A stretch of 11,155 bases of DNA from a virus (Duplodnaviria; Heunggongvirae; Uroviricota; Caudoviricetes): IMG/VR virus record IMGVR_UViG_2529292887_000008, one strand, 5' to 3'. Below the pieces are notes generated by a model, which searched no databases, had not been told where the DNA came from, and saw only the letters and a program-made list of their open reading frames with translations. The translations under genes were made by a program, and so were the position numbers. This document shows, piece by piece, positions 1 through 10,451 of the stretch; positions within the stretch are counted from its first letter, which is position 1; each line of letters begins with the position of its first letter.

Positions 1-1230
1 ATGAGCAGAGCACTTAACAAACTGAGCGATACACAGCTGAGGAAAATCAACGGCACACCCGCCCAAAAAACAGCCTTTCTTAATGACGGTGGAAACCTGA
101 GCGTCAGGCATTCAACCAGTGGCCTTTTAACCTGGTATTTCACTTACAGGGCCGGAACGGGAAGGGGGGCACCACCGGAACGCATTAAGCTGGGAAATTA
201 TCCTGATCTGAGCCTGAAATCAGCCAGGGAAAAAGCCGCCCAGTGTCGCGCATGGCTGGCAGAGGGGAAAAATCCACGTCATGAAATGAATTACACCGTA
301 CAGGAAGCGTTAAAGCCGGTAACGGTTGGCGATGCGCTCACCTACTGGCTTGAGTCGTACGCAAAGGAAAACCGTGTGGATTATGACCCACTGAAAAAGC
401 GGCTAAATAATCACGTAATACAGCACATTGGCCCTATGCCGCTGGATAAATGCGAGCTACGGCACTGGCTGGCCTGTTTTGATCGGGTGGCAAAGAAAGC
501 CCCTGTTTCCGCCGGGTTCCTGCTACAGACATGCAAGCAGGCGCTTAAGTTCTGCAGGAAGCGGCGCTATGCAATCAGCAACGTTCTTGATGATATGAGT
601 GTGGCGGACGTTGGGAAAAAACCGGATATAAGTGAGCGTGTCTTAAGTAACAAAGAACTTGGCGAATTATTGCAGGCACTGGACAAAAAAATATTTTCCC
701 CTTACTACGTCGCACTAATCCGCCTCCTGATTGTTTTCGGATGCCGGACAGTAGAACTGAGGTTATCGGAGATCGGCGAGTGGGATTTTACCGAAATGCT
801 CTGGACCGTTCCGAAGGAGCACAGCAAAACGAAGGTAGCCATATTCCGGCCCATACCGGAAGCGATACTGCCGTTCGTCACGCAGCTGGTGGAGCAGAAC
901 AGGCACACGGGCTTATTGCTGGGGGAAGTGAAACAGGAAACCAGCGTATCGCAGTACGGCAGATTGGTGCACAGGAGGCTTAAACACCCTCACTGGTCAC
1001 TGCATGACATCCGGCGCACCTTTACAACCATGCTGAACGATTTAGGCGTTGATCCTCACGTCGTGGAGCAGCTTACAGGCCACCAGATGCCAGGAATGCA
1101 ACGCGTGTACAACCATTCCCGCTATATTGATGCGAAACGCAATGCGCTTGATATGTGGGTGGAGCGGTTGGAGATACTGGCGGGAACACATGAAAACGTA
1201 ACCACGCTACCAGTAACCAGAATAAAATAA
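1..1230 (+). CDS. int: Tyrosine site-specific integrase, P4-type (409 aa)
   Basis: N-terminal P4-Int-like arm-binding region (LSDTQLRK...LNDGGNLSVRHS...TWYFTYR...IKLGNYPDLSLKSAREKA) and C-terminal catalytic motifs (LHDIRRTFTT...GHQ...VYNHSRY). ORF begins at window position 1. Confidence 0.9.
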   Translation: MSRALNKLSDTQLRKINGTPAQKTAFLNDGGNLSVRHSTSGLLTWYFTYRAGTGRGAPPERIKLGNYPDLSLKSAREKAAQCRAWLAEGKNPRHEMNYTVQEALKPVTVGDALTYWLESYAKENRVDYDPLKKRLNNHVIQHIGPMPLDKCELRHWLACFDRVAKKAPVSAGFLLQTCKQALKFCRKRRYAISNVLDDMSVADVGKKPDISERVLSNKELGELLQALDKKIFSPYYVALIRLLIVFGCRTVELRLSEIGEWDFTEMLWTVPKEHSKTKVAIFRPIPEAILPFVTQLVEQNRHTGLLLGEVKQETSVSQYGRLVHRRLKHPHWSLHDIRRTFTTMLNDLGVDPHVVEQLTGHQMPGMQRVYNHSRYIDAKRNALDMWVERLEILAGTHENVTTLPVTRIK

Positions 1231-1278
1231 TTTTTTTCGTGTTTTTTCAGTATGCGCATACTGGATAAGTGCACAGAT

Positions 1279-1314
1279 ACAACGTGAAACAATGTGCAAC
1301 AACGTGACACAATC
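1279..1314. promoter_or_regulatory. Direct repeats AACGTGA(A/C)ACAAT at 1281-1293 and 1301-1313 in the int-alpA intergenic region
   Basis: Two 13-bp near-identical direct repeats spaced 20 bp apart; candidate regulator or recombinase binding sites. A 10-bp palindrome TATGCGCATA lies at 1251-1260. Confidence 0.3.
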
Positions 1315-1419
1315 ACGAACAAGAGGCCAAAAAGAATACAGATTTATAAGTTACTGATTTTTAATGCTTAGCTGGTTTTTTATACATTAGTGAATTACGC
1401 GTTAAAGCGTGCGAAAAAA

Positions 1420-1450
1420 GGCATAAAACAAGATTTTATGCCTTTGTATT
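1420..1450 (+). terminator. Hairpin plus T-tract, putative intrinsic terminator
   Basis: Stem GGCATAAAA (1420-1428) / TTTTATGCC (1434-1442), 5-nt loop, followed by TTTGTATT. Confidence 0.4.
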
Positions 1451-1604
1451 GATATGAATTTAAATGATTTTATCCTGATTATTCCTCTTTCTGTAAACCA
1501 TGCGACACCAACATTTGCCAACTCTGAATCATCCTGACACAATCAGACACATCCCAACGCAATAGAACACGAAATAACTCTTTAAGAAACGAAAGGGGGC
1601 AATA

Positions 1605-1793
1605 GTGTTAAGCACTGATCGGTTTATACGTGAAAAAGAATGCGAAAAGCTAACAGGCCTTAGCCGCTCATGCCGCTACCGCCTGGAAAAGGCCGGACAA
1701 TTCCCATCACGTCGTAAACTTGGTGGGCGTTCTGTTGGCTGGTCTTTATCTGAGGTTTTGGCCTGGAAGGATAGCTGCAAGGCAGTTCACTAA
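1605..1793 (+). CDS. alpA: AlpA-family (Phage_AlpA) DNA-binding transcriptional regulator, 62 aa, GTG start
   Basis: Motifs LTGLSRSCRYRLEKAGQFP...RKLGGRSVGWSLSEVLAWK match the AlpA helix-turn-helix family; RBS AAAGGGGG about 8 nt upstream of GTG at 1605; position immediately after int as in Gram-negative PICIs. Confidence 0.8.
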   Translation: MLSTDRFIREKECEKLTGLSRSCRYRLEKAGQFPSRRKLGGRSVGWSLSEVLAWKDSCKAVH

Positions 1794-1933
1794 AAAGACT
1801 GGCGGCACACAGTCGCCACACATCCACTAATACAGAGATATAACTATGAAGATTGAATATGCGCCCGAACGTGGGCGGGGATTCGTTCGCCCTGGTGAAA
1901 CTGAAAAACAACAAAATTGGGGTTTTTCAGGCA

Positions 1934-1962
1934 TAAAAAAAGCGGCCCCGATATGGAGCCGC
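1934..1962 (-). terminator. Intrinsic terminator for minus-strand module 2
   Basis: On the minus strand, stem GGCGGC...GCCGC (1942-1962) followed by a 7-nt T-run (complement of A-run 1934-1940), downstream of the CDS ending at 2037. Confidence 0.5.
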
Positions 1963-2036
1963 CTTTCTGAACAATTAACCTGCTGCGCCTTATGTGTATG
2001 TGATCCCAAACATAAGCACGGGAATGATAGCCGCTA

Positions 2037-2240
2037 TCAGGCTGGTGGGCAATTACCTTGCTTGTTGGGGCCGTATTGTGCTGCCATTTTCATCCGTTCA
2101 GAACGTGAATATTTTTTTAGAAACTCATCAAGGACAAAAGCGCATGGAGCGAATCTTTCTGATTCATGCTCGAGCGCCATATTTTCGTGCTCTCTGTTCG
2201 TTTTTTGCGATGGTGTATTGGTTGATTCTTTATTGGTCAT
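2037..2240 (-). CDS. Small hypothetical protein (67 aa), paralogue of 2698-2925
   Basis: Shares N-terminus MTN(K/N) and motif ERFAPCAFVLDEFLKKYSRS / EKFALEDFVDKYPRR and a C-terminal PP(A/G) with the 75-aa protein at 2698-2925; preceded by the same conserved ~45-bp leader. Confidence 0.5.
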   Translation of the reverse strand: MTNKESTNTPSQKTNREHENMALEHESERFAPCAFVLDEFLKKYSRSERMKMAAQYGPNKQGNCPPA

Positions 2241-2246
2241 TGTGTG

Positions 2247-2294
2247 TACCTGTAAAGCAATGCGCCGGAGTTCCTCACGCCACGGCGCTGATGT
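2247..2294 (-). promoter_or_regulatory. Conserved ~45-bp intergenic element (copy 2) between RHH gene and small-protein gene
   Basis: CCTGTAAAGCAATGCGCCGgAGttCCTCACgCCACGGCGCTGAT nearly identical to 2931-2980; contains inverted repeat GCGCCG...CGGCGC (6-bp stem, 15-nt loop) followed on the transcribed strand by AUUGCUUU. Confidence 0.45.
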
Positions 2295-2297
2295 TTT

Positions 2298-2477
2298 TTA
2301 TTCTTTGGGTTCAATACCGCGTTGCTGTAATTCTTTTCGGATTATTCGTTTTATCCAAGCAGCTAAAGAGTCATCACCGTCTTGTTGTTGTGCTTTTTCC
2401 ATCTTTTCCCGTAAGTCAGGATCTAAACGGAACTGGAAAGGAGGATTACCACGCCTTTCATTCTTGTGTGTTGACAC
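2298..2477 (-). CDS. Ribbon-helix-helix (Arc/CopG-like) DNA-binding protein, 59 aa, putative GTG start; absent from the ORF track
   Basis: Manual minus-strand translation: VSTHKNERRGNPPFQFRLDPDLREKMEKAQQQDGDDSLAAWIKRIIRKELQQRGIEPKE; predicted beta-strand FQFRLD plus two helices parallels the RHH protein at 2983-3162. In-frame ATG at 2402 would remove the beta-strand, so GTG 2477 is preferred. Confidence 0.45.
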   Translation of the reverse strand: MSTHKNERRGNPPFQFRLDPDLREKMEKAQQQDGDDSLAAWIKRIIRKELQQRGIEPKE

Positions 2478-2498
2478 GTCAATTACACCCCATATAAT
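2471..2498 (+). promoter_or_regulatory. Near-consensus sigma70 promoter (TTGACA - 16 bp - TATAAT), plus strand
   Basis: -35 TTGACA at 2471-2476 and -10 TATAAT at 2493-2498; overlaps the putative start of the minus-strand RHH gene. Confidence 0.45.
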
Positions 2499-2542
2499 GT
2501 GTTTATGTGTATATACACATTACACACAACTAGCACAAAAAA

Positions 2543-2578
2543 CAACGCCCCGCAGTGATGGGAACACATACGGGGCGT
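2543..2578 (-). terminator. Hairpin with downstream U-tract on minus strand (putative terminator between modules); also 5' part of repeated leader element copy A
   Basis: Stem ACGCCCCG (2543-2550) / CGGGGCGT (2571-2578); on the minus strand followed by TGTTTTTTGTGC. Confidence 0.4.
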
Positions 2579-2665
2579 CTAACCAAACCATTAATTGAGG
2601 TAACGATTATGGTTATAAAAGAGCATAGCTTACTCTTTATACACACACAAACGCCCCGGAAACGG

Positions 2666-2688
2666 AATAATCCGTTTCATAGTTCGGT
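2666..2688. terminator. Perfect 8-bp hairpin GAAACGGA-ATAA-TCCGTTTC just past the stop of the 2698-2925 gene
   Basis: Stem-loop read directly from sequence, 10 nt beyond the minus-strand CDS end; the flanks are T-rich on the plus strand and GU-rich on the minus strand. Confidence 0.4.
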
Positions 2689-2697
2689 TTTGTGCAC

Positions 2698-2925
2698 TCA
2701 TCCTGGCGGTCGGTTTTTGCCGGATTTAAGCCGCCGTGGGTATTTATCGACAAAATCTTCAAGGGCAAATTTTTCTGGTGGCACTAAGCGCGGCGCTGGT
2801 GGTGGTATTTTTGTTCTGGTTAGTTCTTCCTCAAGTCTGGCGCAGGCTTCTGACTGCCTTTGCCGGATGATTTCATCATCTTGCGTTTGCGAGTCTTGTA
2901 TTGGTGATAGTGTGTTGTTGGTCAT
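2698..2925 (-). CDS. Small hypothetical protein (75 aa), paralogue of 2037-2240
   Basis: MTNNTLSP...EKFALEDFVDKYPRRLKSGKNRPPG; shares motifs and the upstream conserved leader with the 67-aa paralogue. Confidence 0.5.
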   Translation of the reverse strand: MTNNTLSPIQDSQTQDDEIIRQRQSEACARLEEELTRTKIPPPAPRLVPPEKFALEDFVDKYPRRLKSGKNRPPG

Positions 2926-2930
2926 GATAC

Positions 2931-2980
2931 TGCCCTGTAAAGCAATGCGCCGTAGTACCTCACACCACGGCGCTGATAGT
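2931..2980 (-). promoter_or_regulatory. Conserved ~45-bp intergenic element (copy 1) between RHH gene and small-protein gene
   Basis: CCTGTAAAGCAATGCGCCGtAGtaCCTCACaCCACGGCGCTGAT; differs from copy 2 only at loop positions of the GCGCCG/CGGCGC hairpin. Confidence 0.45.
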
Positions 2981-2982
2981 GA

Positions 2983-3162
2983 TTATTCTGATTCTTTGGC
3001 CTTGCGACGCTGGCGGTATTCAACTTCCCGCTTTAATGCAGCTGTAACAAACTGCCCTGTACTTTCGCCGGGCATTTTTACCGCCTCAACATTGTTCATA
3101 ACTTCATGTGGAACCCTTGCCGCAACTGTTTGTGATTTTGCGTTTACTGCTTTTGTCGCCAT
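2983..3162 (-). CDS. Ribbon-helix-helix (Arc/CopG/MetJ-like) DNA-binding protein, 59 aa from ATG 3162 (ORF track starts at GTG 3171)
   Basis: MATKAVNAKSQTVAARVPHEVMNNVEAVKMPGESTGQFVTAALKREVEYRQRRKAKESE: beta-strand TVAARV, helix A, G-x-S/T turn, helix B; SD GAGGGG 8 nt upstream of ATG 3162. Confidence 0.6.
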   Translation of the reverse strand: MATKAVNAKSQTVAARVPHEVMNNVEAVKMPGESTGQFVTAALKREVEYRQRRKAKESE

Positions 3163-3212
3163 GTTGAGCACCCCTCATAAAAAACAAATGCAGTATGCAG
3201 GAAAAAAAATAA

Positions 3213-3288
3213 GTGTTCAACACTTGACGTGTTTAACACCTCGATTTAAATTGGTGTTCAACACCTTATTTAGGCAAGGTGTTGAAAC
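3213..3288. promoter_or_regulatory. Operator array (4 copies of palindromic GTGTT-N-AACAC) overlapping a plus-strand promoter
   Basis: GTGTTCAACAC 3213-3223, GTGTTTAACAC 3229-3239, GTGTTCAACAC 3254-3264, GTGTTGAAAC 3279-3288; candidate -35 TTGACG at 3224-3229 and -10 TAAATT 3247-3252 between the divergent RHH gene and the replication operon. Confidence 0.5.
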
Positions 3289-3354
3289 GACGAAACCCCG
3301 CACTGTAGGAGCAGTAACGGGGCTTCTAACCAACAACGTAAACGAGGAGCCGTT

Positions 3355-3552
3355 ATGGTTGCTGTAAATCATATACCACACCTTGTACACACACAAACTG
3401 CCTTTGTGTGGCGTTTTCTGGCACTGAGTGCCGGAGAATCTCAAATCATCCACGTAACCGCCTGGACGGAACGCGAAGCGCGTAGCCGTTGCCCGTCCGG
3501 TTGTGTTGCTGTATTTGCCGCCCGTATTCGTCAGGGGGTATGCCGTGCTTAA
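3355..3552 (+). CDS. Hypothetical protein (65 aa), first ORF of rightward operon
   Basis: Strong SD GAGGAG 5 nt upstream of ATG 3355; the first ~45 nt belong to a repeated leader element (see findings), so coding status is uncertain. Confidence 0.35.
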   Translation: MVAVNHIPHLVHTQTAFVWRFLALSAGESQIIHVTAWTEREARSRCPSGCVAVFAARIRQGVCRA

Positions 3553-3730
3553 AACCTTCCGCGTTTTTTCCCGTGCTGTTAACAAGCGCGGCTATACCGT
3601 TGGCATCACGCAGAACGTGAAGGCCGTTAATATGCAAGCGGCGATTGATTCAGTAATCAGTAATTCCGGTAAAGCAGGTTTATCACAAGTCATTATTTCA
3701 GCAGTGTATGAATTAAAAGAGGTGCATTAA
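3545..3730 (+). CDS. Hypothetical protein (61 aa from GTG 3545; ORF track frame opens at 3503)
   Basis: SD AGGGGG 8 nt upstream of GTG 3545, which overlaps the stop of the preceding ORF (GTGCTTAA). Confidence 0.4.
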   Translation: MLKTFRVFSRAVNKRGYTVGITQNVKAVNMQAAIDSVISNSGKAGLSQVIISAVYELKEVH

Positions 3731-3921
3731 TGAAGGAAATTACATTACACGAAGCCGCTGAACGTGCGCACCAGACAGAAATTATTTGCCGCCTTCTTGA
3801 GGTGTACCCTGATAAATTAAATGATGGTGATATATCCGCATTAGCTGGCCTTCTGGCAAAACTGTCAGGAAGTGTTGCGCTGTGGTTAATTGATGAGAGA
3901 GCCGAACGCTATGAAAAATAA
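3730..3921 (+). CDS. Hypothetical protein (63 aa)
   Basis: ATG overlaps preceding stop (TAATG at 3728-3732), suggesting translational coupling; protein-like composition. Confidence 0.5.
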   Translation: MKEITLHEAAERAHQTEIICRLLEVYPDKLNDGDISALAGLLAKLSGSVALWLIDERAERYEK

Positions 3922-4153
3922 TAAACTGGCGACCAGTGAATTAAGAAGCCTTGCCAACAGCGCAATATCTTTAAACAACGCAGCAAACGAAGTAATGAAT
4001 ATGTGGCTTCAGTCGCTGGTGAATAATGAACGCGATGAATCAACTGCAAGATTAATATTAGCCGTTTCTGAATTACTGGATAGTTCAACCAGCAAAATAG
4101 AGAGCATATCAGAGAAGATTAACGGCTTATCAGGTCACGCTATCGGAGAATAA
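3911..4153 (+). CDS. Hypothetical protein (80 aa from ATG 3911; track start 3890 is TTG)
   Basis: ATG 3911 overlaps the upstream stop (ATGAAAAATAA); predicted helical. Confidence 0.5.
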   Translation: MKNNKLATSELRSLANSAISLNNAANEVMNMWLQSLVNNERDESTARLILAVSELLDSSTSKIESISEKINGLSGHAIGE

Positions 4154-4158
4154 AAATA

Positions 4159-4458
4159 ATGAAACTTAAATATTCTGGCTTAACTGCCAGTGGCAACACT
4201 CACCCTAAATTTACGCGCGGTGATATTTACCGCGACCAGTACGGCGGCACGGTAATGATTAAGGGCGTGGCGGGACGGTGCGTAACTTACCGCCGTGAAG
4301 GTTACGAATATGATTGCGTGATGCCTGTTTATCAGTTCCGGCGTGATTTTTCTCTGGTACAGACCGCGCCGCATAACGTGCCCACCAGCAACGCCAGGGC
4401 ACGGGCAAACATCCAGAAGCTGAAAACCATGATTAACGGATTCAGGGGTAAAAAATGA
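4159..4458 (+). CDS. Hypothetical protein (99 aa)
   Basis: SD GGAGA 9 nt upstream of ATG 4159; stop overlaps the primase start (ATGA at 4455-4458). Confidence 0.55.
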   Translation: MKLKYSGLTASGNTHPKFTRGDIYRDQYGGTVMIKGVAGRCVTYRREGYEYDCVMPVYQFRRDFSLVQTAPHNVPTSNARARANIQKLKTMINGFRGKK

Positions 4459-6203
4459 AACTGGCACCGAACGTAAAAAAACAGCCACGCGGAATAAAAC
4501 ACAAAGACACAGAGGTAATTATCTTTGCGGGTAGTGATGCCTGGTCGCACGCGAAACAATGGCAGGAGCAGGATGGCCCCGCATCCGGCGATAATGTGCC
4601 GCCTGTGTGGCTTGGGCCAAAGCAGCTTGCCGAACTTGATGCGCTGAAAATTGTTCCGGATGGGAAAAAGCGCGTAAGGCTGTACCAGGCCGGAGAACTG
4701 GATTTAGTGGAGACCAAAAAGATTGGTCAGAAGCTGGCGGCGGCAGATATTCAGGACGCAAATTTTTACCACGAAGGAATGCACGTCCAGAAGTGTGAAA
4801 ACTGGCGGCGCTATCTGAATGCTGAGCGTGAAAATATTGCCGCAGGGCTTACCATGCCGGAGCAGAAAAATACGCAACTGGCACAAATGGCAGACAGTGA
4901 GCGCGCACAGATGCTTGCTGGTCGATTTGATGGCGTTTGTGTGCATCCGGAAAGTGAAATCGTTCACGTATGGCGCGGCGGGGTATGGTGTCCGGTCAGC
5001 ACAATGGAACTTAGCCGCGAAATGGTGGCGATCTATTCAGAGCACAGGGCCACTTTCAGCAAGCGCGTAATCAATAACGCCGTGGAAGCATTAAAAGTTA
5101 TTGCCGAACCAATGGGCGAGCCGTCCGGCGATTTGTTGCCGTTCGCCAATGGTGCGCTTGACCTGAAAACAGGGGAATTTTCCCCGCACACGCCGGAGAA
5201 CTGGATCACCACGCACAACGGCATTGAATACACGCCACCAGCACCAGGGGAGAATATCCGCGACAACGCGCCAAACTTTCATAAATGGCTTGATCACGCA
5301 GCCGGAAAAGACCCGCGCAAGATGATGCGTATATGTGCCGCGCTGTACATGATTATGGCGAACCGGTACGACTGGCAGATGTTTATTGAGGCCACCGGAG
5401 ACGGCGGGAGCGGTAAAAGTACATTCACACACATAGCCAGCCTTCTGGCAGGGAAACAGAACACGGTAAGCGCTGAAATGACATCGCTTGATGATGCTGG
5501 TGGACGTGCGCAGGTTGTCGGGAGTCGTCTTATCGTCCTGGCAGACCAGCCGAAATATACAGGCGAAGGAACGGGCATCAAGAAAATCACGGGCGGCGAC
5601 CCCGTGGAAATAAACCCGAAATATGAAAAGCGTTTCACGGCGGTAATCAGGGCGGTGGTGCTGGCGACCAATAATAACCCGATGATATTCACCGAACGGG
5701 CCGGAGGTGTGGCACGTCGTCGCGTGATTTTCCGTTTCGACAATATTGTTAGTGAGGCCGAAAAAGACAGGGAACTACCGGAAAAAATTGCGGCTGAAAT
5801 CCCCGTTATTATCCGCCGCTTGCTGGCGAACTTTACCGACCCTGAAAAGGCGAGGGCTTTACTACTGGAACAGCGTGACGGTGATGAAGCACTGGCAATA
5901 AAGCAACAGACGGATCCGGTTATTGAGTTTTGCCAGTTCCTGAATTTTCTGGAGGAAGCGCGCGGCCTGATGATGGGTGGCGGTGGTGATTCAGTGAAGT
6001 ACACGACCAGGAACAGCCTTTACCGCGTCTATCTGGCGTTTATGGCATACGCAGGCAGGAGCAAACCGCTAAACGTGGCTGAGTTCAGCAAGGCCATGAA
6101 GCCAGCGGCGAAAGTTTACGGGCATGAATATATTACGCGAAAAGTTAAGGGAGTAACGCAGACCAACGCAATTACAACAGACGATTGCGACGCGTTTTTA
6201 TAA
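4455..6203 (+). CDS. Replication initiator: P4-alpha / D5-family primase-helicase (582 aa)
   Basis: Walker A GDGGSGKST (nt ~5401-5427), Walker B-like RLIVLADQ, and overall resemblance to the phage/plasmid primase P4-family C-terminal domain; SD AGGGG upstream; iteron origin immediately downstream as in PICIs. Confidence 0.88.
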   Translation: MKLAPNVKKQPRGIKHKDTEVIIFAGSDAWSHAKQWQEQDGPASGDNVPPVWLGPKQLAELDALKIVPDGKKRVRLYQAGELDLVETKKIGQKLAAADIQDANFYHEGMHVQKCENWRRYLNAERENIAAGLTMPEQKNTQLAQMADSERAQMLAGRFDGVCVHPESEIVHVWRGGVWCPVSTMELSREMVAIYSEHRATFSKRVINNAVEALKVIAEPMGEPSGDLLPFANGALDLKTGEFSPHTPENWITTHNGIEYTPPAPGENIRDNAPNFHKWLDHAAGKDPRKMMRICAALYMIMANRYDWQMFIEATGDGGSGKSTFTHIASLLAGKQNTVSAEMTSLDDAGGRAQVVGSRLIVLADQPKYTGEGTGIKKITGGDPVEINPKYEKRFTAVIRAVVLATNNNPMIFTERAGGVARRRVIFRFDNIVSEAEKDRELPEKIAAEIPVIIRRLLANFTDPEKARALLLEQRDGDEALAIKQQTDPVIEFCQFLNFLEEARGLMMGGGGDSVKYTTRNSLYRVYLAFMAYAGRSKPLNVAEFSKAMKPAAKVYGHEYITRKVKGVTQTNAITTDDCDAFL

Positions 6204-6217
6204 TTTTTTGTAAAAGC

Positions 6218-6441
6218 CCTCTACCCCATCTACCTGAATGAAATAAATACATATTATTCAACATGATAAGTGGGTAGAGGGCCAGGTAGAAGGCTAATAA
6301 AAGCTCTCTACCTCTTCTACCTGATTTTATCAGTTTCAGGTAGCAGGGTAGACGGCAGGTAGAGGAGCTCAAAAAGCTATCTACCCGCTGAAAGCCGCGC
6401 CATTACTGACATGATGAGCATTCGGGTAGATGGGTAGAGGG
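6218..6441. repeat. Iteron cluster (putative replication origin): at least 12 copies of core GGTAGA in alternating orientation blocks
   Basis: CCTCTACC 6218-6225, CCATCTACC 6226-6234, GGGTAGAGG 6272-6280, CAGGTAGAAGG 6283-6293, CTCTCTACC 6304-6312, TCTTCTACC 6313-6321, CAGGTAGCAG 6337-6346, GGGTAGACGG 6347-6356, CAGGTAGAGG 6357-6366, CTATCTACCC 6378-6387, GGGTAGATGG 6424-6433, GGGTAGAGGG 6432-6441. Confidence 0.65.
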
Positions 6442-9510: not shown

Positions 9511-9686
9511 CGGGTCCTTCCTGGAATTATGGCCCGTTACGGGGCGGCGACCTCGCGCGTTTTCGCTATTTATGAGCCTTTTCAGGGGGGTGGTGGTGGT
9601 TTTGTTGTTTGCTCTATCTTTATGAATGAAAAGGGAAAGATGCAAACAATACACCAACCTGAAGCAGTAATTAAGTTGGTGTATTA
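9511..9686 (+). other. cos site 1 (plus orientation): lambda-like cosQ-cosN with a non-lambda cosB
   Basis: CGGGTCCTTCCTGGAATTATGGCCCGTTACG followed by GGGCGGCGACCT (9542-9553; identical to the lambda 12-nt cohesive end as I recall it) and CGCGCGTTTTCGCTATTTATGA; thereafter diverged, with an 11-bp inverted repeat AATACACCAAC (9648-9658) / GTTGGTGTATT (9675-9685) abutting the terS start. Confidence 0.7.
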
Positions 9687-10229
9687 ATGAAATCTCATCT
9701 GATGAACAAAAAAAACATGGCGAAAAGCTGCCGTGTAAGTGCGACAGCGTTCGACAAGTGGGGAGTGACTCCCGTTGAACGTAAAGGCCGTGAGGCGTTT
9801 TATGATGTTGCCAGCGTGATAGACAATAGGGTTAACAATGCAATTAGCCAGCTTACAAACGACAAAGGCGATATTGATGATGATGAACTCTTACGAGTCA
9901 GGATCAGATTACTGACAGCACAGGCGGAGGCGCAGGAACTTAAAAACGAGCGCGATCGCGGTGACGTGATTGATACTGAGTTTTGCCTGTACGCGCTTTC
10001 AAAGCTGGCGAGTCAGATTTCATCAATCATGGACAGCCTCCCGCTTACTATGCAAAGGAGCTTCCCACAGATTACCCCCGCCATGCTGGACAGGCTTAAA
10101 AGGGAAGTGGTTAAAGCCTGTAATGCCAGTGCCAGAGTTGCCGACAACCTCCCACAGATACTGGCTGATTACTTGAAAGAAACAACCGGAAACGTACCGG
10201 AAAAGTTGCTACAGAAGAAAGGCAAGTAA
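9687..10229 (+). CDS. Small terminase subunit, lambda Nu1-like (180 aa; ATG 9702 aligns better with the Nu1 N-terminus)
   Basis: LTAQAEAQELKNERDRGDVIDTEFCLYALSKLASQISSIMDSLPLTMQRSFPQ and LKREVVKACNASA parallel lambda Nu1 (LTRAQADAQELKNARDSAEVVETAFCTFVLSRIAGEIASILDGLPLSVQRRFPE...FLKRDIIKAMNKAA); N-terminus MNKKNMAKS...FDKWG parallels MEVNKKQLADIFG...QNWQEQG. Confidence 0.82.
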   Translation: MKSHLMNKKNMAKSCRVSATAFDKWGVTPVERKGREAFYDVASVIDNRVNNAISQLTNDKGDIDDDELLRVRIRLLTAQAEAQELKNERDRGDVIDTEFCLYALSKLASQISSIMDSLPLTMQRSFPQITPAMLDRLKREVVKACNASARVADNLPQILADYLKETTGNVPEKLLQKKGK

Positions 10230-10256
10230 CAGAAGCGCAATTATTGAACAAAAATG

Positions 10257-10451
10257 AGAAAGGATCTGATAATGGCATTTTCTGGCTAAAATGCCTCGTG
10301 TCAGATCCTTTCTTTTTTTAATATTTTCATTGTTAAACAGTCTGTTACAGAGAAGAAGAACGGATCTGACTTTTGCCGGAAAATTTTCATAAACAGATAA
10401 AAACCGCGAGGCCGCCGCCCCGTAACGGGCCATAATTCCAGGAAGGACCCG
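10257..10451 (-). other. cos site 2 (minus orientation): lambda-like cosQ-cosN-cosB with altered R elements
   Basis: Reverse complement reads CGGGTCCTTCCTGGAATTATGGCCCGTTACG-GGGCGGCGGCCT-CGCGGTTTTTATCTGTTTATGAAAATTTTCCGG...CCGTTCTTCTTC...AAAAGAAAGGATCTGACA...TCAGATCCTTTCTC, collinear with lambda cosN-cosB (R3/I1/R2/R1) but with GGATCTGA-type R elements at 10262-10269, 10301-10308 and 10362-10369; cosN complement at 10409-10420. Confidence 0.7.

Follow-up and report, generated by a model that had tools for sequence, protein, structure and literature searches.

Three exact copies of an 11-bp palindrome lie in the control region of an 11,155-nt viral sequence, IMG/VR record IMGVR_UViG_2529292887_000008; the whole of this stretch is referred to here as the window. 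Judged by its genes, the window is a Gram-negative phage-inducible chromosomal island (PICI) resembling EcCICFT073. Comparison across related loci indicates that the palindromes are probably the binding sites of a ribbon-helix-helix (RHH)-like protein of 59 residues, a member of the YlcI/YnfO family encoded divergently beside them. This protein would repress P_R, the rightward promoter of the replication operon, and regulate its own gene, and it appears to be exchanged between islands together with its operators as a cassette of about 330 bp.

The palindrome GTGTTNAACAC (GTGTT-N-AACAC) occurs at 3213-3223, 3229-3239 and 3254-3264, so that successive copies begin 16 and 25 bp apart. When one mismatch is allowed, the window holds a single further match, where 0.34 would be expected by chance, and none of 200 shuffled sequences reached four. 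That match, GTGTTAAGCAC at position 1605, covers the alpA start codon. It was rejected as an operator: it belongs to a coding sequence and recurs unchanged in an island with different operators (class B below), so the resemblance is a coincidence. The elements of the control region are as follows.

3213..3223, no strand: operator O1, GTGTTCAACAC, an exact palindrome found in all relatives of class A (the specificity class of the window); abuts the P_R -35 hexamer on its upstream side
3229..3239, no strand: operator O2, GTGTTTAACAC; covers the last -35 base and the first 10 nt of the 17-nt P_R spacer
3254..3264, no strand: operator O3, GTGTTCAACAC; begins 2 nt past the P_R -10 hexamer and spans the expected transcription start, predicted near 3259
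3224..3252, plus strand: rightward promoter P_R, sigma-70-like, TTGACG (3224-3229), 17-nt spacer, TAAATT (3247-3252); predicted by promoter scan
3192..3220, minus strand: putative leftward promoter P_L of the RHH gene, -10 CATACT (3192-3197), 17-nt spacer, -35 TTGAAC (3215-3220)
2983..3162, minus strand: gene of the 59-residue YlcI/YnfO-family RHH-like protein (MATKAVNAKSQTVAARVPHEV...), ATG at 3162, divergent from the operators

P_R is the sole consensus promoter that the scan returns between 2900 and 3700, and counterparts are predicted in EcCICFT073 (TTGACG-18-TATAGT) and in the related Escherichia coli locus L017 (TTGACG-17-TAATAT). The TTGAC of the -35 hexamer is kept across specificity classes, and in every class an equivalent of O2 follows it directly. 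A sequence-only reading of this DNA had placed the sites over the -35/spacer and +1 regions of a plus-strand promoter TTGACG-17-TAAATT heading the replication operon, next to a divergent RHH gene, and had found them unlike the lambda, 434 and P22 cI-type operators; all of this holds. On the leftward side, O1 would contain the -35 hexamer of P_L, and a CAGTAT(A/G) block about 30 nt upstream of the RHH start codon is kept in all classes and coincides in part with an operator copy in most of them. Most other classes carry their third operator on the -10/+1 region of P_L instead (GGTGGCTGACAGTATAC and similar), which supports an autoregulatory site at this promoter.

Conservation of the sites was assessed in IMG/VR, where 2.9 million viral contigs were scanned with the pattern O1-N5-O2, which leaves O3 outside the query. 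The 47 loci recovered are all satellite-like, with int, DUF4222 and primase genes nearby, and in every one the pattern lies directly upstream of a class-A 59-residue gene (44 at 97% identity or more). O3 is present in all 47, exact and exactly 25 bp from O2. Conservation in related islands, which the sequence-only reading had named as a check, holds for the three sites. Among 29 unique related intergenic sequences, O3 varies at its central base only, and 32 of the 49 columns outside the sites are variable. Three operators thus appear to be under selection, and the supposed fourth site is not among them. The operator pair was never found away from the RHH gene, either in these viral contigs or in GenBank phages, and blastn and tblastn searches of 50,697 GenBank phages returned no match to the operator region or to the 59-residue protein. 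Helper-phage copies of the operators or the protein were considered and discarded, as the IMG/VR matches are all satellites and none lie among the GenBank phages. With the 59-residue protein as query, a scan that covered one genome per species added 15 loci from Edwardsiella, Pectobacterium, Xenorhabdus and Klebsiella. In two of the Xenorhabdus loci (L012 and L016), the intergenic region upstream of the RHH gene is shortened to a single operator copy and lacks the P_R hexamers, a pattern suggestive of deletion through recombination between operator repeats in decaying islands.

The sequence-only reading had counted four operator copies spaced 16, 25 and 25 bp apart. Three stand as exact and conserved palindromes with the first two spacings, whereas the fourth copy falls, and the last interval of 25 bp with it. 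This supposed site (3279-3289, GTGTTGAAACG) has three mismatches to GTGTTNAACAC, a level at which the window contains 45 matches against 43 expected. It varies at 9 of 11 columns among the 29 unique intergenic sequences, most of which read GGTGCAGAAACG. The same letters belong to a perfect 11-nt inverted repeat, 3257-3267 (TTCAACACCTT) and 3276-3286 (AAGGTGTTGAA), with a loop of 8 nt. A fourth operator was therefore rejected as a chance-level, unconserved match that forms the 3' arm of a hairpin. Its likeness to the operators has a simple source, since site 3 is itself palindromic and the sequence complementary to it resembles another copy. Two structures are predicted in the P_R leader.

3257..3286, plus strand: 5' leader hairpin; the 3' arm is the supposed fourth site and the 5' arm overlaps O3
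3296..3334, plus strand: second stem-loop of the leader (3296-3322, CCCCG..ACTG/CAGT..CGGGG) with the near-invariant CTTCTAACCAAC after it; precedes the ribosome-binding site of the Icd-like gene

The leader is predicted to fold at -32.2 kcal/mol (z = -3.7), with the hairpin at 3257-3286 as the first of two and at the very 5' end of the predicted P_R transcript. Relatives carry shorter and differing stems at the same place (CACCTTG/CAAGGTG, ACCTTGA/TCAAGGT, ACCAA/TTGGT, GACAC/GTGTC). The repeat thus fits a structural 5' stem-loop and not a protein site.

The principal argument for the 59-residue protein comes from covariation. Across about 75 related loci, which fall into about eight specificity classes, the operator always occupies the same promoter positions. 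Its outer GTG...CAC and residue R16 of the protein are constant; in the eight classes, substitutions at residues 12 and 14 accompany changes in the central 5 bp. The predicted strand (residues 11-16), the operator and the loci correspond as listed.

QT[VIL]AAR, including QTVAAR of the window (class A): operator GTGTTNAACAC; the window, L002, L003 and the 47 IMG/VR loci (50 loci)
[KR]KLEAR, including KKLEAR (class B): operator GTGGCTGACAC; Xenorhabdus, P. polonicum and E. coli L017-L019
KRFDVR, KKIDVR and KRIDAR: operator GTGTC-N-GACAC (KRFDVR example: GTGTCCGACAC); L020/21 and L070-73
QSLKSR (L022) and QALKAR (EcCICFT073): operator GTGGGCCACAC; L022 and L079
QALRAR: operator GTGTAGACCAC; L074/75
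QSVTAR: operator GTGTAAGACAC; L076/77
AQKKIR: operator GTGGGGGTRCAC; Klebsiella L014

The module is also found in the prototype EcCICFT073, where the operators read GTGGGCCACAC. A natural exchange is evident in the E. coli locus L017, whose AlpA is 100% identical to that of the window, whose int-proximal region is identical as well and whose Icd-like protein is near-identical, yet whose RHH-like protein has the KKLEAR strand and whose operators read GTGGCTGACAC. Identity between the two islands changes abruptly along the region.

1001-3000: 97-100% identity between the window and L017
3001-3300: 57-62%
3301-3400: 86%
3401-3500: 100%

From this profile, the exchanged segment is a sharply bounded cassette that spans the operators, the leader and the greater part of the RHH gene. 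The opposite situation is found in the 47 class-A loci, where the operators are the same and the surrounding genes are mosaic: AlpA is 33-98% identical or undetected, integrase 22-100%, the Icd-like protein 37-100% and primase 27-98%. Locus L019 has the operators of L017 together with an unrelated AlpA-like protein of 68 residues and a different integrase. In L020 and L021, the RHH/operator module is joined to a KilA-N gene and stands without the Icd-like gene or the leader hairpin, an arrangement which indicates that the module is self-contained. In this set of loci, the adjacent 59-residue protein is the only constant partner of the sites. The L017 swap and the mosaic backgrounds together exclude AlpA, the Icd-like protein, primase, integrase and host factors as determinants of site specificity. 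The sequence-only reading had left the binder open between an RHH protein, AlpA and a helper factor; the comparison favours the RHH-like protein and removes AlpA from the specificity-determining candidates.

AlpA, an excisionase-type winged-helix activator encoded 1.4 kb away, might itself bind the palindromes, since induction depends on it and island genes are activated by it (PMC6092414). Its complete identity in L017 despite different operators speaks against it, as do identical operators in loci where AlpA is only 33-68% identical or undetected, and the shared operators of L017 and L019 in the presence of unrelated AlpA proteins; binding by AlpA is accordingly extremely unlikely. No more credible is a Cro-like action of the Icd-like protein, the first rightward product. 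Its gene position resembles that of cro, and it matches phrog_1743 and phrog_6196, both labelled 'transcriptional repressor', but it is near-identical in the window and L017 where the operators differ, it ranges from 37 to 100% identity among loci with identical operators, and its gene is absent from L020 and L021, where the operators remain. Also very improbable are recognition of the sites by a protein of the host or of a helper phage, and a role for them as replication iterons or origin elements. Helper phages do induce such islands through an unknown factor (PMC6092414), and repeats near replication genes can be iterons. Nonetheless, the operator changes between islands of one host species in step with an island-encoded protein, and the pair never leaves the RHH gene in IMG/VR, while GenBank phages match neither the region nor the protein. 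The sites are moreover locked to promoter hexamers and stay constant while primase varies from 27 to 98% identity.

A different question is what the RHH-like protein does once bound. Its main task might be to regulate the small operon formed by its gene and a downstream small gene, in the manner of a type II antitoxin or an accessory module, or it might be an activator or Cro-like lytic regulator instead of the maintenance repressor of replication. RHH proteins are often antitoxins, and the weak hits of remote relatives are to antitoxin families. The window has a small gene (2698-2925) after the RHH gene, a small protein with the pattern FAPCAF..L..FLK.Y recurs after the RHH gene of EcCICFT073 and after the second RHH gene of the window, and most classes have one operator on the -10/+1 of the RHH gene itself. 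This alternative is unlikely all the same, because two of the three sites lie within the core of the divergent P_R and not at the RHH promoter in every class, and the downstream partner is variable (108, 57, 248 or 126 residues), absent or replaced by a convergent gene. One site between -35 and -10 plus another on +1 is, besides, a repressing geometry.

Assignment of the protein to the RHH fold is likely and draws on several partial signals. Its NCBIfam family is secure: NF041551, the model of the N-terminal domain, matches residues 9-50 (59.7 bits, cutoff 30, E = 2.1e-16), and RefSeq gives the homologues in E. coli genomes and in EcCICFT073 (gene C_RS30120) the YlcI/YnfO name. RHH proteins are recognised by a G-x-S/T/N turn that starts helix 2 and by a basic or polar alternating strand that sets specificity. 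Both features are present in the alignment of the 59-residue proteins, in which the N-terminus MATKAVNAKS, R16 and G32-E33-S34 are invariant and positions 11-15 variable. Residues 13, 15 and 17 stay hydrophobic, as expected of an RHH beta-strand whose residues alternate between facing the DNA and facing the core. An exhaustive profile search retrieved only 81 cluster representatives, which points to a small family. Weak hits of its remote members are all to RHH proteins, namely RHH_1/CopG, PSK_trans_fac, Rv0623-like, HicB-like and TacA families and the PDB entries 3no7 and 4me7 (EndoAI). These hits are sub-threshold (RHH_1 4.5e-4, PSK_trans_fac 2.9e-4, 4me7 E = 1.2) and align in the expected strand-helix-helix register. 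An hhalign comparison with the second RHH protein of the window likewise gives a consistent register that is not significant.

Several results weigh against a repressor of this kind at P_R. Neither the window protein nor its close relatives have a Pfam hit, and searches by sequence and by profile yield no significant PDB match that would place the protein among RHH structures. The AlphaFold2 monomer (pLDDT 79) has helices at 19-28 and 35-58 and a low-confidence N-terminus that is not a strand, and a Foldseek search of this model against the PDB finds nothing significant. Loss of the strand is a familiar limitation when RHH proteins are modelled without their dimer partner. The hhalign comparison with Arc places KSQTVAARVPHEV on the Arc beta-strand KMPQFNLRWPREV with a probability of only 4.5%. 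P_L, read from the sequence, matches the consensus at 8 of 12 positions and falls under the scan threshold. The spacings of 16 and 25 bp put adjacent sites on different helical faces, so cooperative tetramers of the Arc type are not obviously possible. The compared loci are related by descent and their counts overstate the number of independent events, an effect that the mosaic backgrounds mitigate. Finally, over-expression of AlpA alone induces replication of EcCICFT073 (PMC6092414), which means that any RHH repression must be bypassable.

With these points in mind, a mechanism can be outlined in which one RHH dimer binds each palindrome. The variable strand side chains at positions 12 and 14 would read the central 5 bp, and the invariant R16, the invariant N-terminal arm or both would read the outer GTG/CAC. 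Occupancy of O2, over the -35 hexamer and spacer, and of O3, over +1, would block RNA polymerase at P_R and keep the replication operon with its Icd-like and primase genes silent in the resting island. O1, on the -35 of the weak P_L, would impose negative autoregulation on the RHH gene. As a unit of about 330 bp, the protein and its operators appear to be swapped between islands much as a phage immunity region is. Induction would require the block to be overcome, probably through helper-induced AlpA, which is necessary and sufficient for EcCICFT073 induction (PMC6092414). Speculatively, AlpA could drive read-through from upstream across the region or override the repressor in another way.

The sequence-only reading had called the array the master control switch of the island. 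That wording is too strong, given that AlpA is the required activator (PMC6092414) and that a second Arc-like RHH/promoter module lies upstream (2298-2610). More broadly and more tentatively, the YlcI/YnfO RHH-like protein could be the master repressor so far missing for Gram-negative PICIs and the P4-like satellites related to them, a functional counterpart of Stl with at least eight operator specificities swapped in 'immunity' cassettes of about 330 bp; we regard this as possible, though short of probable. If true, the cassettes would set which co-resident satellites cross-repress one another, and AlpA or factors of the helper phage would induce the island by acting at them. The presence of a global repressor in Gram-negative elements was described as unclear in 2018 (PMC6092414), and a survey from 2026 refers to YlcI/YnfO merely as a 'prophage-associated protein' (PMC13612085). 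A prior description of the protein or its sites was not found in the open-access literature. What appears to be new is that Gram-negative PICIs, the laboratory model among them, gain a candidate repressor with a family of swappable specificities. The candidate is specific: a protein of 59 residues, three 11-bp sites and a predicted recognition code that relates positions 12 and 14 to the central 5 bp. Conceptual surprise is limited, as an RHH repressor on a promoter is a classical device. The natural specificity variants nonetheless constitute a ready collection of short orthogonal repressor/operator pairs.

The remaining gene content agrees with the island assignment. The window displays the layout of a Gram-negative PICI of about 10-15 kb, with int, alpA, a regulatory zone, DUF4222 and primase genes and a packaging-interference/capsid module, and EcCICFT073 itself (E. 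coli CFT073, NC_004431.1) has the same gene order and sizes. The features below come from the open reading frame (ORF) list, Pfam and NCBIfam.

1-1230: integrase (ORF list, Pfam/NCBIfam)
1605..1793, plus strand: AlpA (PF05930), the published activator of such islands (Pfam)
between alpA and the replication operon, minus strand: a set of small genes (ORF list)
3355..6203, plus strand: rightward operon under P_R (ORF list, Pfam, NCBIfam), in the same order as in EcCICFT073
3355-3552, plus strand: Icd-like gene, first of the P_R operon, with small ORFs after it
4159-4458, plus strand: DUF4222
4455-6203, plus strand: P4-type primase
elsewhere in the window: an ORF of SSB size, a capsid-like protein of 351 residues and an ORF of TerS size (9687-10229) (ORF list/Pfam/NCBIfam)

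Sequence matching at least part of positions 2900-3700 (801 bp) was found in 1384 of the 5426 complete genomes of E. coli. The RHH/operator module is thus present, in some form, in about a quarter of them, as well as in the experimental model EcCICFT073. Further structured sequences lie outside the control region. A long near-perfect hairpin (6215-6296) directly follows the primase gene, having surfaced as a spurious sub-threshold microRNA match, and could be a terminator or part of an origin. A 76-nt inverted repeat, 87% complementary (9511-9586 and 10376-10451), stands on both sides of the TerS-size gene at 9687-10229, and more nested inverted repeats occur at 10251-10370.

The second leader stem-loop is itself conserved in structure, and its variants assort independently of RHH class. 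RNAalifold on 17 sequences supports nine pairs, six of them with compensatory double changes, and the near-invariant motif that follows reads YTCTAACCA. On the opposite strand, the same stem-loop takes the form of a terminator-like hairpin. No Rfam family matches the window, the second stem-loop included. The P4-type immunity RNAs C4 (RF01695) and isrK (RF01394) are likewise unmatched in the window, also when hits with E up to 10 are admitted for the 241-nt region; the positive control L019 scores 77.6 bits for C4 and 66 bits for isrK. The C4 RNA of L019 shows no complementarity to the leader hairpin or to the second stem-loop. In the relatives L019 (3492-3677), L003 (5853-5921) and L022 (6893-6961), C4 and isrK lie inside an Ash-family gene downstream of the RHH/operator module. 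A further motif of such relatives, 'int-alpA RNA' (RF02996), sits between their int and alpA genes; the window gave no match to it at the thresholds used.

A second, tandem regulatory module occupies 2298-2660. Its RHH gene, on the minus strand at 2298-2477, matches the PHROG family 'Arc-like repressor' (E = 1.5e-6), and the start codon of this gene is overlapped by a perfect-consensus promoter, TTGACA-16-TATAAT (2471-2498, plus strand, 12 of 12 positions). A near-palindrome with the core ATGTGTATATACACAT follows this promoter (2495-2522), and a second copy of the leader hairpin with GTCTAACCAA lies at about 2546-2586, 81% identical to 3308-3333. The ATG at 2609 encodes MVIKEHSLLFIHTQT, which looks like a remnant of the N-terminus of the Icd-like protein. 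Transcription from the 2471-2498 promoter would run antisense through the gene of 75 codons and the 59-residue RHH gene, toward the replication operon. Each RHH gene is followed by a GC-rich hairpin (2262-2290 and 2947-2973) and a paralogous small gene, encoding 67 residues (2037-2240) and 75 residues (2698-2925), respectively. Both small proteins have the pattern ...F(A/V)L(E/D)(D/E)F(V/L)(D/K)KY... near the C-terminus, and EcCICFT073 has a relative of 57 residues after its own RHH gene. These products might be partners of the RHH proteins.

Comparison with established control systems helps to situate the module. Like the 59-residue protein, the Arc and Mnt repressors of the P22 immI region are small, of about 50-80 residues; in them an N-terminal ...h-x-h-R-h-P-x-E-h... 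strand precedes two helices, an order likely to hold for the 59-residue protein too. Their operators O_arc and O_mnt are likewise short and symmetric over close divergent promoters, and they autoregulate, as we infer for the 59-residue protein. Differences are nevertheless substantial: the window protein has no significant sequence or profile match to Arc and no Pfam Arc/RHH hit; three separate 11-bp palindromes replace a single 21-bp operator bound by a tetramer; and the proposed target is a satellite replication operon instead of an antirepressor gene. CopG (RepA) of pMV158 is closer in purpose, an RHH repressor whose pseudo-symmetric operator covers a replication-operon promoter and which, as would be the case here, sets the level of an initiator. 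CopG is expressed from the same transcript as repB and represses the operon that encodes it, whereas the regulator of the window is divergent and has three dispersed sites. A single remote relative hits RHH_1, the copG family, with an E value of only 4.5e-4.

In related satellites, the same neighbourhood houses P4 immunity, which relies on the CI RNA and seqA/seqC and is represented in Rfam by C4 and isrK (PMC10111431); L019 has both downstream of the module. The window lacks a match to either family, and control by a protein at transcription initiation, as proposed here, differs from RNA-mediated termination. The control region of the window is accordingly not a P4-type RNA immunity system. 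Among Gram-positive PICIs (SaPIs), the repressors Stl and Rpr hold the same place on the map, next to int and divergent from the excision/replication operon, and their presumed role is alike in that the island stays silent until a helper acts (PMC6092414). Stl is a larger helix-turn-helix protein relieved by helper-phage proteins, in contrast to the small RHH-like protein described above. For Gram-negative PICIs, induction is documented through AlpA only, and an anti-repressor is not known (PMC6092414). Lambdoid immunity (cI - OR1-3 - cro) differs in its DNA-binding fold, in the LexA-like cleavage domain that the 59-residue protein lacks, in the presence of Cro, for which no counterpart was identified here, and in operators of 17 bp instead of 11 bp. 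It nevertheless shares with the window a tripartite operator between back-to-back divergent promoters, and the exchange of repressor and operators as one specificity cassette within otherwise near-identical genomes.

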